Shown: positions 8,228-16,037, counted from the stretch's first letter. The stretch is 26,467 bases of DNA from a virus (IMGVR_UViG_2654588181_000005:1-26467); one strand, 5' to 3'. The notes: generated by a model not told the origin, from the letters alone. Made by a program: numbers and translations.

Positions 8228-8249
8228 AACATCAAGAGGCAAATGATTC

Positions 8250-8672
8250 ATGAAAATCAAGCATGAGCACATCGAATCAGTGTTGTTTGCCCTGGCAGCC
8301 GAAAAAGGGCAGGCATGGGTAGCCAATGCAATTACTGAAGAATATCTGCGCCAGGGGGGCGGCGAATTGCCCCTGGTTCCAGGCAAGGACTGGAACAATC
8401 AGCAGAATATCTATCACCGTTGGTTGAAAGGTGAAACGAAAACGCAAAGAGAAAAAATTCAGAAGCTGATCCCAGCAATTCTGGCAATCCTTCCGCGCGA
8501 GTTGCGTCACCGACTCTGCATCTTCGATACCCTGGAACGCCGTGCATTACTGGCGGCGCAAGAAGCGTTAAGTACGGCAATTGATGCGCATGATGATGCA
8601 GTCCAGGCCGTTTACCGGAAAGCGCATTTCAGCGGCGGTGGTTCGTCCGGCGATTCTGTTGTTGTTCATTAA
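8250..8672 (+). CDS. ydaT: YdaT, toxic Rac protein
   Basis: 140 aa starting MKIKHEHIESVLFALAAEKGQAWVANAITEEYLRQGGG; immediately downstream of ydaS. Confidence 0.85.
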   Translation: MKIKHEHIESVLFALAAEKGQAWVANAITEEYLRQGGGELPLVPGKDWNNQQNIYHRWLKGETKTQREKIQKLIPAILAILPRELRHRLCIFDTLERRALLAAQEALSTAIDAHDDAVQAVYRKAHFSGGGSSGDSVVVH

Positions 8673-8684
8673 GGTGATGTGGTG

Positions 8685-8981
8685 ATGGAAAAATATGAAC
8701 TGAAAAAATACCGACTTAAAACACTGGAAGGCGAAACATTGCTTCAGCGTATAGCCCGAAATGTTGCCTGGTATGCCATACGACTCTCTCTGCATCGCCA
8801 TCTTGTTAACGGGTATCCCTCGTCAACGCTGTTGTTCATCAATATCAAAGATAAAGAAAAAGCCGCAGAACACATTCGGTGGATGGAACTGGCGCAGGGA
8901 CAAGCTCTTGATATTGAGTATGGCGATGAGATCGACTACAGCAAAGCTCAACCGCTGCGCCACGTAATTTTTAGGGGGTGA
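8685..8981 (+). CDS. Hypothetical protein (98 aa), third gene of the ydaS-ydaT operon
   Basis: ATG at 8685, 13 nt after the ydaT stop; product MEKYELKKYRLKTLEGETLLQRIARNVAWYAIRL...; no family recognised. Confidence 0.5.
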   Translation: MEKYELKKYRLKTLEGETLLQRIARNVAWYAIRLSLHRHLVNGYPSSTLLFINIKDKEKAAEHIRWMELAQGQALDIEYGDEIDYSKAQPLRHVIFRG

Positions 8982-9233
8982 TTATGACATCTTTTCTTTT
9001 AGCTTTTGTAGGGCAACGATCAGTTCATCAATTTGGGTTGCATCCATTATCAACTCTAGTTTGTGATAAGCCCCGTAATTTAGCTCCTGTGTGTGGAATT
9101 CCTGGGCAAGTATTTTTACTCCTCCGCGATTGAGCATTCCTGAGGTGCTAAAAATTTTTGACTCGGTTCCAGTAATACTGTCCACCCAAAATTTTTGGGG
9201 GAATGGAGCAGACTTATCAAATGTAAAAGACAT
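8982..9233 (-). CDS. Hypothetical protein (83 aa), convergent with the upstream gene
   Basis: Strong AGGAGG ribosome-binding site about 6 nt before the ATG at 9233; product MSFTFDKSAPFPQKFWVDSITGTESKIF...; its stop codon directly abuts the stop of the 8685-8981 gene. Confidence 0.5.
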   Translation of the reverse strand: MSFTFDKSAPFPQKFWVDSITGTESKIFSTSGMLNRGGVKILAQEFHTQELNYGAYHKLELIMDATQIDELIVALQKLKEKMS

Positions 9234-10924: not shown

Positions 10925-11686
10925 ATGGAGACTGTTTTTGACGCACTGAAAGCAATGGGAAAAGCCACGTCGGTAGAACTCGCTGCGCGACTTGATATCA
11001 GTCGTGAAGAGGTACTGAACGAGCTGTGGGAACTGAAAAAGGCTGGTTTCGTTGATAAAAGCGTATACACCTGGCGTGTGGCTGATAACAACGTTCAGCA
11101 GGAACAGCCAGAGCAGGCAGAACTGCCGGAAGAAACCACCACAGCAACAGTAGCGAAAATCTCAGAGTGCGATTTAACCGCGACGATTGAACAACGCGGA
11201 CCACAAACGGCTGATGAGCTGGCTACATTGTTTGGTACCACATCACGCAAAGTGGCTTCAACGCTGGCAATGGCAATCAGCAAAGGTCGTCTGATTCGCG
11301 TAAATCAGGGCGGTAAATTTCGTTACTGCATACCGGGCGATAATTTACCAGCAGAGCCGAAAGCAGCATCGGTAGCGGAAACTGATGGTAAGGCTTTTCC
11401 TCAGCCCGCAGGTGTTGCGTTACCAGTACAGGAGGCTGCAACACAGGAAGAAATTAAAACAGATACTGTAGCGGACATTGTGCAGTCGTTGCCATCGTTT
11501 ACCGAAACGCGGGCGGATGATTTGATTTTGCCATCGCTGCATCTGGCAAACCGCAAACTGCGTCGGGCGAAAAGCCATGTCCAGAAGTGGGAGCGTGTCT
11601 GCGCCGCGCTGCGGGAGTTGAACAAGCACCGGGATATTGTTCGCCAGATTACTGATTCTTCCCGCTGTGTTGTATCGGAAAAGTGA
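10925..11686 (+). CDS. Conserved lambdoid-prophage protein (DUF1627-like, as recalled)
   Basis: 253 aa from [46 protein letters not shown], a winged-helix-like N-terminus. Confidence 0.55.
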
Positions 11687-11701
11687 TTGCCGGAGGCGCT
11701 T

Positions 11702-12124
11702 ATGGCAAAAGTATTTACACAAGAAGAGCGGGAAAAAATTAAGGGGCAGGTTGTTGAACTCGTGCGCCAGAATGGGCGCGAGACGTTACGACAACTTGAA
11801 GCTAAGACAGGTGCGACAAGATATTTAATGAGCGTTCTCGCCAGAGAGCTGGTTGCCAGTGGCGATGTATATAACTCCGGCTACGGGCTATTTCCCTCTG
11901 AACAGGCTCGTAAGGACTGGCAAAACGCCCGCAAAAAACTATCGAGGGCAAAGGTGAAGAAACCTGCTGTAGTTGATCCGGACCTTATCTGGTCATTACC
12001 AGACGGAGAAATACGCCGCTATGACAGGCGTCTGAATATAATCTGTCGCGAGTGCCGGAAGAGCGAAGTCATGCAGCGTGTACTGGCGTTCTATCAGGGT
12101 AATTTTCAGGATGTGCTGTTGTGA
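11702..12124 (+). CDS. Hypothetical phage protein (140 aa)
   Basis: GGAGG before the ATG at 11702; product MAKVFTQEEREKIKGQVVELVRQNGRETLRQLEAKTGATRYLMSVLAREL. Confidence 0.5.
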   Translation: MAKVFTQEEREKIKGQVVELVRQNGRETLRQLEAKTGATRYLMSVLARELVASGDVYNSGYGLFPSEQARKDWQNARKKLSRAKVKKPAVVDPDLIWSLPDGEIRRYDRRLNIICRECRKSEVMQRVLAFYQGNFQDVLL

Positions 12125-12228
12125 GCCAAATTAACAATCAGGGAACTGCGTGAACTGAAAGAGAAATCATAATCCAAATCTGAATAATTAAATTTAGCAC
12201 TGTAAATAAAATTTAATCCTTAACCGGA

Positions 12229-12239
12229 GGGGGGGGGGG
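12229..12239. repeat. Homopolymeric G11 tract in an intergenic region
   Basis: Eleven consecutive G at 12229-12239, 47 nt upstream of the ATG at 12286; followed by a GCCC-GAAA-GGGC mini-hairpin. Confidence 0.95.
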
Positions 12240-12285
12240 CACCCTCAAAATATTAGGAGGCGGCCCGAAAGGGCGGTAATGAAAA

Positions 12286-12789
12286 ATGACTGAATTAACC
12301 AAAAAGCAATTAATCGAAGAAGCTAAATTAAAAATAGCGATTGAGAAATGCCACCCCAATTCAGGGATGGCATGGGTAGAGGGCGAATTATTCAAAATTG
12401 CTCTGGCATCTCTGGAAGCAGAGCCAGTTGGTGATTTTTATGAATACAAACCGGATGACTGGTATCAGCGTTCGGCTGGAGATAAAGCGCCAAAAAGGAC
12501 GCCATCCTATGCCGTTTTTCCAGCGCCCGTAGTGCCGGAAGAAATGGATTTGCTTACATGCCATCTCGATGGTGTAACTGAAACATATGCTGAGGGATGG
12601 AACGCTTGCCGCGCTGCCCTGCTTCAGGGCAAAGGGGAGCCCGGGAAACAAGTTCGCGAATTGACAATGCTGGTTAAACAATTGGTTAGTCAACTTAAGA
12701 AAGCGAAACCGGGCTGCAAATTGCCGGATAAAGTGATGGACTACCTGGAGCGAAGCGGACTTATAAGCGTGGAGGATGTTTTACGATGA
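12286..12789 (+). CDS. Hypothetical phage protein (167 aa)
   Basis: Product MTELTKKQLIEEAKLKIAIEKCHPNSGMAWVEGELFKIALASLEAEPVGDFYEYKPDDWYQ...EGWNACRAALLQ; family not confidently recognised. Confidence 0.55.
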   Translation: MTELTKKQLIEEAKLKIAIEKCHPNSGMAWVEGELFKIALASLEAEPVGDFYEYKPDDWYQRSAGDKAPKRTPSYAVFPAPVVPEEMDLLTCHLDGVTETYAEGWNACRAALLQGKGEPGKQVRELTMLVKQLVSQLKKAKPGCKLPDKVMDYLERSGLISVEDVLR

Positions 12790-12869
12790 CCTGGTCTGAA
12801 GCATTCACAACGGTAGGAATTGCGATGGCGGTGGCGCTGGTGGTGTATTCGATTTGCCGCTGGGGTTGA
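12786..12869 (+). CDS. Putative small hydrophobic peptide (27 aa)
   Basis: ATGA start/stop overlap with the upstream gene; product MTWSEAFTTVGIAMAVALVVYSICRWG resembles a single transmembrane helix; followed by a terminator. Confidence 0.3.
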   Translation: MTWSEAFTTVGIAMAVALVVYSICRWG

Positions 12870-12882
12870 TAATACTAAATAA

Positions 12883-12901
12883 CCAGCCCTTATGGGGCTG
12901 G
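12883..12901. terminator. Bidirectional intrinsic terminator between convergent genes
   Basis: CCAGCCC-ttatg-GGGCTGG hairpin, flanked by a T-rich run on the minus-strand side and a weaker one on the plus-strand side. Confidence 0.6.
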
Positions 12902-12909
12902 CTAATCAT

Positions 12910-13683
12910 TTAGAACTGTTCATTGCCATCGAGGTTAGGTAGCATAATTTTTTCAATCAAGGCGAGAGCCTTTTTGTCCCGGTCAGCGAAGTATTTCGGG
13001 GCATATTGCGGCAACCAAATATTGTTAAAATGTTCTTTGAAATCTGCTAAATATTCATTTGGGTACAGCCTTGCAGGGTATACGCGACCATCGGGATATT
13101 CATGGTCATAGGTAGGGAATGTTTTGGGTTCTACGTTTCTATTATCTCTTAACCATTGTGAAAATACTCTTCCTTGTGAAATGTCAGGAACCATTTTTTC
13201 TGGGAGTGTGTACCCTGCTTGTTCAAGAGGTGCAACCAAGTTGAATGTCAGTTCATTAAGAATAGAAAAGTGCGTGTGAGGAATTCTACTACGATTAACC
13301 ATGTACCGTTTTAAATGTACAGGCATTTCTGCTGTAGTTCTTTCCCCTGACATCCATTCACGAACCCATCTTGAAACCTGGACTGCAAATTTGGGCGATA
13401 GCCACTGCGCTAGATTAATAGCGATGTCAGGATGCACCCATGTCCCTTGGTTTTCAGGTCTTCCACCTTTAAATGATTGAATTAACTCCGATATGGGAAT
13501 TCCCATATCGCGTGATAATTCGTCAAAAAACTCTTGAGTAGTTTTGAGTCTAGTGTAATCAGAGAGCAGTTTGCCCGCAGTTCTACACATTGATGTGGCG
13601 TTTATGTAACCATCTTTGGCACGTAAATGTATTATTTCGCCGTCAATTTCACGAGAAATCAAAGATAATTGAAAGGATGTCAT
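12910..13683 (-). CDS. KilA-N domain protein
   Basis: 257 aa; N-terminus IHLRAKDGYINATSMCRTAGKLLSDYTRLKTTQEFFDEL...HPDIAINLAQWLSPKFAVQVSRWV is a classic KilA-N/APSES-type domain; GAGGA ribosome-binding site; C-terminal ~130 aa of unknown function. Confidence 0.75.
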   Translation of the reverse strand: MTSFQLSLISREIDGEIIHLRAKDGYINATSMCRTAGKLLSDYTRLKTTQEFFDELSRDMGIPISELIQSFKGGRPENQGTWVHPDIAINLAQWLSPKFAVQVSRWVREWMSGERTTAEMPVHLKRYMVNRSRIPHTHFSILNELTFNLVAPLEQAGYTLPEKMVPDISQGRVFSQWLRDNRNVEPKTFPTYDHEYPDGRVYPARLYPNEYLADFKEHFNNIWLPQYAPKYFADRDKKALALIEKIMLPNLDGNEQF

Positions 13684-14205
13684 TGAAAATTCCTCAAGTT
13701 GGAGAGTTCTGGAACATTAAGGCGAGGTGGCCGTAATGCACCATCTGTAATCTTTTGATACTGACGTAATCGGGCCTGATGTGCAACGCCTTGCAAGTAT
13801 GTAACTCATTGAAAACGATCATTTTTATCTATTGACATCAAATGGCAAACTGTCATTGTGCGGCTATGGCAAGTGGCAAATGCTTATAAATCATATGGAT
13901 ATAAATAGTACAGAAAGAGTTGTTTTCTCTAGGATATGAGTATACGCCCAATGCTGATTGGTTGAATTTTGTTCTTGTTTTAAAGGGTAAGAGTTTAAAG
14001 TGTTGGCAGTGATGTATTGGATAGTTAGAATTGCTGTGGGTGCTTGAGGCTATCTGCCTCGGGCATGATCACCAAAGGTAGATAGAGAAAAGCCCCAGTT
14101 AACATTACGCGTCCTGCAAGACGTTTAACATTAATCTGAGGCCATATCTATGCGACACATAGAGATTAGCCTCTTACGGACCGAAAGGTCAAGGAGAAGC
14201 AGGCT

Positions 14206-14361
14206 ATGAAGCAGCAAAAGGCGATGTTAATCGCCCTGATCGTCATCTGTTTAACCGTCATAGTGACGGCACTGGTAACGAGGAAAGACCTCTGTGAGGT
14301 ACGAATCCGAACCGGGCAGACGGAGGTCGCTGTCTTCACAGCTTACGAACCTGAGGAGTAA
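14206..14361 (+). CDS. hokD: Hok/Gef-family type I toxin (HokD/RelF-like)
   Basis: 51-aa product MKQQKAMLIALIVICLTVIVTALVTRKDLCEVRIRTGQTEVAVFTAYEPEE; a short upstream ORF (14150-14209) ends overlapping the hok ATG, mok-like. Confidence 0.85.
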   Translation: MKQQKAMLIALIVICLTVIVTALVTRKDLCEVRIRTGQTEVAVFTAYEPEE

Positions 14362-14368
14362 GAGACCG

Positions 14369-14390
14369 GGCGAGGGAGAAATCCCTCGCC
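14369..14390 (+). promoter_or_regulatory. Stable stem-loop in the hok 3' region
   Basis: GGCGAGGGA-GAAA-TCCCTCGCC, a 9-bp stem with GNRA loop, 8 nt after the hok stop; no U-tract follows, so not a classic terminator. Confidence 0.5.
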
Positions 14391-14827
14391 ACCTCTGATG
14401 TATTATGCATCCTCAACGCACCCACACTTAACCAGCTTTGGCGGGTTTATTTTATCTGTAAATATTTTTATAAAAATAATGCCCACGCACAGCATAAAAC
14501 AAAAAGTATTACAGATAAAAAAGGAGCGTAATGTGCAGATTTGTTGTTTTCCATATTTACTCACCTTAATATGATTAATCCTGATAGGGTTGTTATTTCA
14601 GTGGTTTTCAAATGAGATATTATGGTGATCTGGTAGATTTGCATAACATTAAAATTTAATTTGTTTAACCGCTTTTAATAATAAGCGTTGTTTTTATCCC
14701 AGCAATCTGTTGTTTGGTTTTTATTCCATCAATGTGGGGGCTTTACACTGGAGCCAGTTTATTTATACTTCATTCGTCAGCCTGAACAACTGGCATCTGC
14801 TGCACTGCGCCATCGAGAGATTGAGAA

Positions 14828-15427
14828 ATGGCGCATATACAACTGGTCAAACAAACTTCTTCTGGTTTACTTCTCCCGGCGACGCCGGAGAGTTGCGATT
14901 TTCTGCATCAAATCAAAATAGGTGAGTGGATACACGCAGACTTTAAGCGTGTGCGTAACTACGCATTCCACAAGCGTTTTTTCAAACTCCTGCAACTGGG
15001 TTTCGATTACTGGACTCCGGTCGGTGGGGCGATCACGCCTCGCGAACGAAAACTGGTGTCCGGTTTCGTTGATTACCTGTGTGAATCAGTAGGCCGGGAA
15101 CATACGCCAGCTCTGAGCGAAGCCGCAGAGCAATATCTGAATACAGTTGCGACACACAGAACCCGTGATACGGCATTGCTAAAGTTGTTTGAGGCTTTCC
15201 GCGAGTGGGTAACCATTCAGGCCGGATTTTACACCGAGCATATTTATCCGGACGGTAGTCGTGGGCGTCGGGCGAAATCCATCGCGTTTGCGAATATGGA
15301 CGAAACCGAGTTTCAGCAGGTTTATAAATCTGTACTGAATGTGCTGTGGAACTGGATTCTGTTCCGTAAATTTTCCTCTCCGGAACAAGTCGAAAATGTG
15401 GCCGCGCAGCTACTGGAGTTTGCGTAA
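14828..15427 (+). CDS. Conserved lambdoid late-regulatory-region protein (DUF1367-like, as recalled)
   Basis: 199 aa starting MAHIQLVKQTSSGLLLPATPESCDFLHQIKIGEWIHADFKRVRNYAFHKRFF. Confidence 0.55.
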   Translation: MAHIQLVKQTSSGLLLPATPESCDFLHQIKIGEWIHADFKRVRNYAFHKRFFKLLQLGFDYWTPVGGAITPRERKLVSGFVDYLCESVGREHTPALSEAAEQYLNTVATHRTRDTALLKLFEAFREWVTIQAGFYTEHIYPDGSRGRRAKSIAFANMDETEFQQVYKSVLNVLWNWILFRKFSSPEQVENVAAQLLEFA

Positions 15428-15717
15428 TGGTGGATTTACGTAAAGCGGCGCGGGGCCAGATGTGCCAGGTCAGAATCCCTGGCTACTGCAATCACAATCC
15501 CGAAACTTCTGTGCTGGCGCATTACAGGTTGGCGGGAACGTGCGGAACGGCGATAAAGCCACACGATATGCAGGCAGCGATTGCCTGTAGCTCGTGCCAC
15601 GATTTAATCGACGGGCGGGTAAAAACAAGCGATTACACCAAAGAAGAATTACGCCTGATGCATGCAGAAGGTGTTTTTCGCACGCAAGAAATCTGGAGAA
15701 AGGAAGGTTATTTATGA
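15427..15717 (+). CDS. YbcO-like putative nuclease (DUF1364-like, as recalled)
   Basis: 96 aa with Cys/His clusters (CQVRIPGYCNH...CSSCHDL); start overlaps the upstream stop by 1 nt, as in nin-region operons. Confidence 0.55.
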   Translation: MVDLRKAARGQMCQVRIPGYCNHNPETSVLAHYRLAGTCGTAIKPHDMQAAIACSSCHDLIDGRVKTSDYTKEELRLMHAEGVFRTQEIWRKEGYL

Positions 15718-16037
15718 TTTACCCAACAAATACAGGCAAAAGCGGGGAACACCTTCGTCTCACCACGCTGGAAAGTGTCTGGATTCAGGGAAAACTGCGC
15801 ATGTGGGGGCGCTGGTCGTATATTGGCGGCGGTAAGACGGGGAATATGTTCAACCAGTTGTTGGCCTCTAAAAAGCTGACAAAAACGGCAATTAACGAGG
15901 CGCTCCGGAGGATGAAAAAAGCAGGTCTGAACAAGTCTGAACTTGAGGCTTTTTTGCGGGATATGATTAACGGTAAGCAAAAGAGCTGGCTGGCGCATTG
16001 TACTGATGCAGAGGCGTTATATCCCCGGCGTTTATGA
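15714..16037 (+). CDS. Possible antiterminator Q-like protein N-terminal part (frame-disrupted?)
   Basis: ATGA overlap with the upstream gene; GGAAGG ribosome-binding site; LRMWGRWSYIGGG resembles the LERWGAWAAN motif of QuuD-type Q proteins; the ORF ends at 16037 while a second frame continues from 16006. Confidence 0.35.
   Translation: MIYPTNTGKSGEHLRLTTLESVWIQGKLRMWGRWSYIGGGKTGNMFNQLLASKKLTKTAINEALRRMKKAGLNKSELEAFLRDMINGKQKSWLAHCTDAEALYPRRL

Follow-up and report, generated by a model that had tools for sequence, protein, structure and literature searches.

BstA, which prophages express constitutively, aborts infection by foreign phages and is localised to their DNA as it replicates, and the prophage that hosts its gene is shielded by a cognate DNA element of 63 bp, called aba, which spans the bstA start codon from about -29 to +34 (Owen et al. 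2021, PMC8585504). Homologues of BstA are typically encoded directly behind the phage repressor gene (PMC8585504). A further precedent is provided by prophage hot spots (PMC9122126), where a fixed position between conserved phage genes is filled by many alternative accessory or defence genes that have a lower GC content, carry promoters and terminators of their own, and are exchanged via the conserved flanks. Here we describe a segment of 2.7 kb, beginning at position 12125 of a virus sequence of 26,467 nucleotides (IMGVR_UViG_2654588181_000005:1-26467; hereafter ‘the window’, meaning this whole stretch of DNA), that resembles these hot spots in all of the respects just listed and that includes both a BstA-like gene and a hok/sok locus.

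The window represents a lambdoid prophage of the Rac family. Its nearest relative across the studied region is a prophage of Escherichia coli A17 (99.7% identity), which is integrated beside ttcA and includes intR, xisR, ralR, recET, kilR, racR and ydaS/T. We consider it likely that the segment is recombination hot-spot cargo of this Rac-type lambdoid prophage, located between a Ren-like DUF977 gene on the left and a module formed by hok and a NinB-like gene on the right.

The interval between DUF977 and hok differs among related prophages

The arrangement found in the window is rare. Searches of 50,697 phage records and 5,426 complete E. coli genomes recovered the whole block from only 3 of the former and about 101 of the latter, compared with 4,826 genomes and about 80 phages for the hok module on its own. 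To describe what other prophages carry in the same interval, we relied on a sample rather than a census, comprising 60 ‘spread’ rows of matches to positions 11300-15800 and about 12 inspected loci. An empty site is seen in BLR(DE3), where DUF977 is followed directly by hok. The corresponding gene order in SW07091 is DUF977, a reverse-oriented AbiH gene (PADLOC 1.7e-27) together with a 463-aa gene, hok, DUF1367, DUF1364 and DUF1133. In 2014C-3599, the slot holds an orphan methyltransferase together with an sce7726 gene and the gene of a ‘beta’ protein that matches PD-Lambda-2_C (E 2e-41), and hok is followed there by a Doc toxin. MB06171 carries a DUF262 protein that is NsnA- or PD-T4-2-like, YA-1 carries an Sll1717 ATPase (PDC-M36A), and further cargoes between the same flanks include DUF5677, an alpha/beta hydrolase and QueH. 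Several of the alternative cargoes match PADLOC models for defence systems.

Comparisons with other prophages also reveal the boundaries of the exchanged units. In an O157:H7 prophage (L005), the equivalent of window position 12865 is joined almost directly to that of 14019, with 22 bp between them, and this junction defines a cassette of 1,153 bp that carries the BstA-like gene and that is absent from L005. Phage 933W likewise has the order orf27 then hok, without the BstA cassette. Homology of the hok module to other loci begins at 14019-14026 and ends at 14448 or 14803. Among 117 E. coli genomes that carry the cassette, its identity is 99.8-99.9% in the great majority, and its flanks are 7-10% divergent in the prophage of strain 7/2 (L003), which is the sole prophage compared base by base. 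Identity between the window and this prophage is 90% up to 11914, 99.5% over 11915-14294 and 70% beyond. Given that the tract of 99.5% identity has its ends inside DUF977 and hok, a recent exchange by homologous recombination within these two anchors is indicated.

A second point of exchange lies on the right-hand side of hok. Where the block has its common form, in about 100 genomes (strain 7/2 and phage vB_EcoS-666R9 were inspected), an 888-bp replacement that carries a reverse-oriented DUF1971 gene is located just after hok, at 5245-6133 of L003 and 8245-9133 of the vB_EcoS-666R9 locus (L001), in place of window positions 14376-14466.

The position of the segment matches that of ninA in phage lambda, which comes after ren and before ninB. 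On the left of the segment are genes for O-like, P-like, DUF1627 and DUF977 proteins, and on the right are genes for DUF1367, YbcO and DUF1133 proteins (Pfam). A preliminary description of the window, which had been prepared from the sequence alone, placed the segment in a nin-equivalent position before a DUF1367/YbcO/Q block, and Pfam and PHROGs assignments bear this out. Because the segment follows a Ren-like gene and precedes a NinB-like gene, we regard the label ‘nin-equivalent’ as fair. The left neighbour had been called a replication-region gene; a DUF977 gene does adjoin the segment at this point, but its match to phrog_142 makes it Ren-like, not a replication gene in the strict sense.

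All of the elements listed in the preliminary description, which had noted mixed orientation and AT-rich spacers over 2.7 kb, are located where it had placed them. These include a 167-aa gene with a coupled 27-aa hydrophobic peptide (12286-12789 and 12786-12869, with an ATGA overlap), a convergent KilA-N gene (12910-13683, minus strand) and a hok toxin gene (14206-14361). The GC content of the whole region is 42.4%, that of the flanking genes is 50-52%, and that of the spacers is 41% (12125-12285), 38% (13684-14037) and 34% (14456-14827). For the BstA cassette, a GC content of 39.7% and a GC content at third codon positions (GC3) of 0.35 stand against the 50-52% of the flanks. The alignments that had been suggested for defining insertion boundaries yielded breakpoint pairs at 12865 / 14019 and 11915 / 14294. 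Thus, the segment is not a syntenic block conserved across unrelated lambdoid phages with uniform composition, and its rarity, its variable contents and its compositional shift support the original view of stacked morons rather than core phage functions. We would amend this view in two ways. The hok gene is less a stacked insertion than a quasi-fixed anchor at the right-hand side of the slot, and exchange in the one pair of prophages compared base by base looks like homologous recombination rather than discrete insertions.

A BstA-like gene in a reverse-oriented cassette

The convergent gene encodes a protein whose N-terminal part matches the KilA-N domain (Pfam PF04383, E 4e-27), in agreement with a structure model that gives this part a KilA-N/APSES DNA-binding fold. 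Over its full length, the protein matches phrog_6287, annotated as ‘BstA abortive infection system, replication inhibitor’ (E 2.7e-89), and BstA of Salmonella phage BTP1 belongs to the same family, likewise over its full length (E 2e-150). The PADLOC model for BstA matches residues 119-238 (E 3e-21), and BLASTP aligns 142 aa of the C-terminal domain with BstA-BTP1 at 32% identity (E 3e-16), such that this domain is homologous to residues ~156-307 of the BTP1 protein. An alignment of 15 sequences that includes BstA-BTP1 has 25 invariant positions distributed across both domains. Given these matches, the gene labelled KilA-N can be re-read as a distant homologue of the BstA family and a probable abortive-infection gene.

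BTP1 bstA is located behind the repressor gene, whereas the window gene occupies the nin-equivalent slot, is convergent with the early operon and is not behind racR. However, a homologue with 86% identity is located immediately downstream of cI in phage PhiR5_2.

The hairpin that separates the convergent orf27 and bstA-like genes had been described as a bidirectional terminator. A hairpin is present at 12880-12904, and it has the form of an intrinsic terminator on the minus strand. On the plus strand, it is followed by CUAAUCAUUUAG, which is not a U-tract, and the z-score of its fold is only -1.5. Given that a U-rich tail exists on the minus strand only, the bidirectional character of the terminator, and with it termination on the plus strand, is only weakly supported.

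The window protein belongs to a separate and highly conserved BstA-like subfamily (2,651 matches) that is set apart from the BstA proteins that have been tested. For example, the tested protein BstA-Ec is 41.7% identical to BstA-BTP1, and thus is much nearer to it than is the window protein. Among 80 loci, the subfamily extends from Enterobacterales to Verrucomicrobiota, Planctomycetes, Chloroflexi (Dehalococcoidia), Nitrospirota, Spirochaetes and bacteria of the candidate phyla radiation. Clustering of open reading frames (ORFs) at 75 loci across bacteria revealed no recurrent neighbour that could represent a conserved partner gene, and just this negative result is used here since the ORF caller was crude and produced spurious ORFs in high-GC genomes. 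The largest neighbour cluster was an IS1595-type transposase, located within a few genes at 10 of the 75 loci. In the carrier genomes, many of which are from human clinical isolates, the RefSeq name of the protein is only ‘KilA-N domain-containing protein’. Because the PADLOC model matches the C-terminal domain only, standard defence finders may miss this subfamily.

Table 1. Coordinates of the features of the segment and its neighbours, as positions in the window
Feature	Position	Strand	Remarks
DUF977 / Ren-like gene	11687..12124	+	Left anchor; Pfam DUF977 E 3.8e-31; phrog_142 ‘Ren-like exclusion protein’ E 5.5e-48
AT-rich leader upstream of orf167	12125..12285	+	41% GC; sequence feature; holds G11 at 12229-12239
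orf167	12286..12789	+	167 aa; mosaic Ea22/DUF551-associated prophage protein
orf27	12786..12869	+	27 codons; predicted single-pass membrane micro-ORF, MTWSEAFTTVGIAMAVALVVYSICRWG; ATG overlaps orf167 stop (ATGA)
BstA cassette	12866..14018	-	Terminator, gene and 335-bp upstream region; 1,153 bp; 39.7% GC; GC3 0.35
Intrinsic-terminator hairpin of bstA-like gene	12880..12904	-	Between convergent orf27 and bstA-like ORFs; 10-pair stem, then UUUAGUAUUA
bstA-like gene	12910..13683	-	257 aa; N-terminal KilA-N/APSES DNA-binding domain and BstA-type C-terminal domain
Upstream region of bstA-like gene	13684..14018	-	38% GC; promoter-like site 13848-13821, TTGCCA-16-AAAAAT, 9/12
hok promoter-like site	14003..14031	+	TTGGCA-17-TAGAAT, 10/12; mosaic joint between -35 and -10 hexamers
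Predicted full-length hok mRNA	14038..14455	+	418 nt; fbi ~14410-14422; terminator hairpin and T-run ~14430-14455
Sok antisense RNA	about 14088..14157	-	Approximate; mapped by alignment from annotated sokW of 933W (L008)
mok-like upstream ORF	14150..14209	+	19 codons; TGA stop overlaps hok ATG; read from sequence
hok toxin coding sequence	14206..14361	+	51 aa, intact; Pfam PF01848 HOK_GEF E 1.2e-23
AT-rich spacer	14456..14827	+	34% GC; between hok and DUF1367
DUF1367 (NinB/Orf-like)	14828..15427	+	First gene of conserved right module; Pfam DUF1367 E 7e-97; phrog_319 NinB/Orf
YbcO	15427-15717		Pfam 3e-45
DUF1133 (Q-like)	from 15714		Pfam 3e-64; antiterminator Q by annotation in one phage record

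The hok/sok locus, orf167, orf27 and the surrounding prophage

The hok locus is complete, with a candidate promoter, a leader, a mok-like upstream ORF, Sok, a closure between fbi and tac, and a terminator all recognised. Its leader (14038-14208), which reaches from the predicted +1 to the hok AUG, matches Rfam RF01794 with 101 bits, compared with a gathering threshold of 59. The minimum free energy and centroid folds both pair 5' nucleotides 1-11, GGGUGCUUGAG, with CUCAACGCACCC near the 3' end, as expected for tac-fbi closure, and the fold of 14038-14455 has a z-score of -8.5, with none of 100 shuffled sequences as stable. The Sok RNA, which is complementary to the start region of the mok-like frame, is predicted to form a 5' tail, a long hairpin and UUUU (-26.7 kcal/mol, z = -4.3), and a candidate promoter for it, TTGACC-N18-TAATCT, can be read from the minus strand at ~14165-14195. 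The encoded Hok protein is identical to that of A17, which RefSeq names HokD (WP_000813254.1), and the coding sequence (CDS) in strain 7/2 is truncated to 41 aa. The match of K-12 hokD to the window starts only at 14192, and thus the upstream leader of the window is without a counterpart in that match.

Two forms of the mok frame exist. It is an in-frame N-terminal extension of Hok in 933W (L008 2738-2950), BLR(DE3) and SW07091, and a 19-codon upstream ORF with a stop-start overlap in the window and in CFT073. The frame difference amounts to a net 1 nt among hok loci that are otherwise 90-93% identical, and the GAAA-loop hairpin next to it differs as well (GACC...GGUC versus GCC...GGC). The prophage carries another type I toxin-antitoxin system, RalR/RalA, whose RalA antitoxin small RNA is located at 1557-1735 (Rfam RF02694, 218 bits). 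An E-value scan of 12000-15000 with Rfam gave no RNA besides the hok/sok leader.

No match to orf167 was found in Pfam, NCBIfam or PADLOC. It matches phrog_660 (E 6e-51) and, partially and over different segments in each case, eight other phrogs. Of 2,055 homologues, most are prophage proteins of Escherichia and Shigella, and many are fused to DUF551. Judging from these matches, orf167 encodes a typical mosaic Ea22-like protein, and indeed its N-terminal, middle and C-terminal parts match different members among the Ea22/Ead-like and DUF551-associated mosaic proteins. Unlike its DUF551-associated relatives, however, orf167 is without a Pfam domain. Moreover, such mosaics belong to the early-left regions of lambdoid phages, whereas orf167 and orf27 follow the replication genes in the early-right operon.

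The small ORF that overlaps the end of orf167 is represented by homologues with 78-86% nucleotide identity in dozens of Shiga toxin (Stx) and other lambdoid phages, including 933W and VT2-Sakai. Exactly 27 codons and the ATGA overlap are retained behind differing upstream genes in 933W, 19-1-2, JLK-2012, ArgO145 and an O157 prophage, and the coupled ORF follows genes of the Ea22/DUF551-associated kind in 933W, ArgO145, JLK-2012 and others. Substitutions are biased to the third codon position (e.g. 4/2/11 and 4/4/13 by position), replacements are conservative and hydrophobic, and stops close the alternative frames. This pattern of coding conservation marks orf27 as a genuine conserved micro-gene with a predicted single-pass membrane product. 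Most inspected records leave it unannotated, and vB_EcoS-689R5 alone annotates a frameshifted version of 36 aa. Given its clear coding conservation and rare annotation, orf27 is a concrete candidate for small-protein work. Clustering had suggested that orf27 could be a C-terminal extension of DUF551 proteins; the peptide is absent from the 121-aa DUF551 sequences, and therefore we rejected this grouping as a clustering artefact. In 933W and an O157:H7 prophage, orf27 is located directly before the hok promoter.

Leader positions 12168-12284 also precede another gene (DUF7167) in CFT073, and the spacer at 14456-14827 is linked to hok in CFT073 (to 14803) and to DUF1367 elsewhere (from 14430 or 14467). 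A promoter-like site at 14742-14769 upstream of DUF1367 (TTTACA-16-TATACT, 10/12) is retained in all five aligned prophages, which suggests an independent promoter for the operon of NinB-like, YbcO and Q-like genes; all promoter calls in this study are consensus matches only. An ORF of 12 codons, MCRFVVFHIYSP, is preceded by a strong Shine-Dalgarno sequence, AAGGAGCG, in the same spacer (~14523-14570). The Shine-Dalgarno sequence and start are retained in diverged prophages, and the ORF has 9 codons in strain 7/2.

Three additional features of the prophage are located beyond the segment. The near-identical A17 prophage has about 7.1 kb (L002 17895-25015) that the window lacks at the junction 16018-16020, such that only the first 103 or so codons of the Q-like DUF1133 gene are left and are joined to the interior of the large-terminase region. 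Because the missing part comprises the remainder of Q along with the lysis genes, ParB and the small terminase, the prophage of the window is probably defective. A 391-aa ORF at 18234-19409 (plus strand), located between tail and baseplate genes, carries an HSDR_N domain of type I restriction enzymes (Pfam E 5.6e-14) and lies inside a stretch of 33-37% GC (18000-19400), and thus is another low-GC candidate for a moron or defence gene. Finally, positions 24400-26221 hold a stretch of 25-27% GC and, following it, a 442-aa ORF for a YadA-like trimeric autotransporter adhesin with YadA head, stalk and anchor domains.

Alternative explanations, proposed function and known systems

The main rival to our interpretation holds that the KilA-N protein is a regulator of the phage’s own development, for example an antirepressor or a Roi/Ant-like protein, and has no role in defence. 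We judge this to be unlikely, given that the match to the phrog that holds the experimentally characterised BstA is full-length, that the C-terminal domain is homologous to that of BstA-BTP1 and has invariant residues in common with it, and that the gene forms part of a self-contained cassette in reverse orientation. The close homologue directly behind cI, where lysogen-expressed defence genes sit, and the lack of a conserved phage partner gene likewise argue against a regulator. Regardless, several observations weigh against reading the segment as defence cargo with a BstA-family gene. The PADLOC BstA model is matched over only 43% of its length, overall identity to BstA-BTP1 is only about 25%, and the window protein is 50 residues shorter (257 versus 307 aa). 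Judging from BstA, an aba-like element would be expected at about 13650-13712, and a repeat search at the bstA-like start and alignments of five Enterobacterales orthologue upstream regions revealed no such element, whether conserved or BTP1-like. There are no terminal repeats of the CCCGCC type, and the start region has short direct repeats only (TTTCAAT twice around the ATG, and CAAATGGCAAA / CAAGTGGCAAA upstream). Enterobacterales orthologues differ in their upstream regions, which would be expected for cognate elements and proves nothing. Members of the subfamily are 50-60% identical across very distant phyla and are often located outside obvious prophages; this conservation is unusually high for a defence gene that is mobile and, together with such settings, makes a function other than phage defence possible. 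On the side of the toxin locus, the terminator stem of hok has two substitutions relative to the consensus, with one mismatch. The slot survey, as noted above, was based on a sample.

Two other alternatives concern the segment as a whole and its leader. The least probable is that the segment is a conserved, integrated part of the early operon, comprising core nin-like genes rather than exchangeable cargo. The co-orientation of orf167 and orf27 with the early operon, the presence of hok at this position in most related prophages and a tract of about 2.4 kb that is nearly identical in at least 100 genomes would each be compatible with this proposal, but more than 98% of E. coli genomes lack the segment though its flanks are widespread, its GC content falls by 10 points, and in other prophages the same interval either is empty or holds one of at least eight unrelated cargoes. 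The empty site and these alternative cargoes effectively exclude a conserved core block. Only slightly more credible, and in our estimation still very improbable, is the idea that the G11 tract serves as a slipped-strand phase-variation switch over orf167 and orf27. The run of 11 G residues that had been pointed out in the preliminary description does exist, it lies 46 nt upstream of the orf167 start, and close relatives vary in the tract (G7, G8 or G11). However, the tract reads G8CTG in vB_EcoS-666R9 (L001) and strain 7/2 (L003) and G7CTG in A17 (L002), such that the G11 of the window is accounted for by substitutions at two neighbouring positions of the common G8CTG (12237-12238, GG in place of CT), with the length unchanged, rather than by slippage. 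Moreover, only three alleles are evident, the tract is non-coding, a promoter scan found no hexamers flanking it, and an error of sequencing or assembly in the homopolymer context is possible. Thus, the tract is not conserved and is without support as a functional feature, and we rejected phase variation as unsupported and effectively excluded.

With hot-spot cargo as the preferred interpretation, the following model can be proposed. The anatomy, homologies, slot variability, mosaic boundaries and RNA folds on which it draws are results of the analysis, and what it says of lysogen expression, defence activity, self-immunity and any role of orf167 and orf27 is inferred. The contents of the slot would be accessory, with at least two units serving the lysogen rather than phage growth. 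The sense-oriented genes orf167 and orf27 would probably be read through from the early rightward operon, with orf27 translationally coupled. The reverse-oriented BstA-family cassette, having its own AT-rich upstream region and intrinsic terminator, would be self-contained and, by homology, expressed in the lysogen. The resident prophage might escape the action of the BstA-like protein by means of a cognate DNA element near the 5' end of the gene. Alternatively, it might do so through antisense read-through from the early operon at induction, since the convergent arrangement means that antiterminated early transcription could then cross the bstA-like gene in the antisense direction, although this is speculation. 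The hok mRNA would be stable and held closed by fbi-tac pairing, and the unstable Sok RNA would block the mok-like upstream ORF, with which translation of hok is coupled. If transcription ceased or the element were lost, the cell would then be killed, which would favour prophage retention and possibly phage exclusion. In this manner, hok/sok could serve as an addiction and exclusion module that doubles as the right-hand recombination anchor, and cargo would move between prophages by homologous recombination in the conserved anchors DUF977 and hok.

A broader proposal, about which we are doubtful at present, is that lambdoid prophages of the Rac type and their relatives have, between DUF977 and hok, a defence hot spot akin to those of P2/P4 that has yet to be catalogued, with hok/sok as its fixed anchor and with uncharacterised occupants as candidate anti-phage genes, and that the BstA-like subfamily forms a branch of its own that is far more widely distributed than the tested BstA proteins. 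If this were true, the candidate genes for anti-phage activity or phage competition would be orf167 with orf27, DUF5677, the 463-aa AbiH partner and the alpha/beta hydrolase. Given that orf27 lies directly against the hok promoter in 933W-type phages, a functional tie to hok could also exist. The exchangeable slot defined here, with DUF977 and hok as its conserved anchors, also offers a place in which to search systematically for defence genes carried by prophages. A limited search of the searchable literature found no description of the DUF977-hok slot, the BstA-like subfamily or orf27, although an absence of hits in such a search is not proof of novelty.

With regard to known systems, the window gene resembles BstA-BTP1, BstA-Ec and BstA-Kp in being a single prophage-borne gene with its own terminator. 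The hok locus has the same parts as hok/sok of plasmid R1, hokW/mokW/sokW of 933W and hokD (relF) of the K-12 prophage Qin. Compared with the hot spots of PMC9122126, the slot described here belongs to another phage family and has other anchors, namely DUF977/Ren-like on one side and hok/DUF1367 on the other. Every component of the segment is of a known kind, whether the BstA family, hok/sok, Ea22-like mosaics, or prophage morons and defence hot spots. Current concepts are therefore unchanged, and the locus adds members and one location to these known categories.

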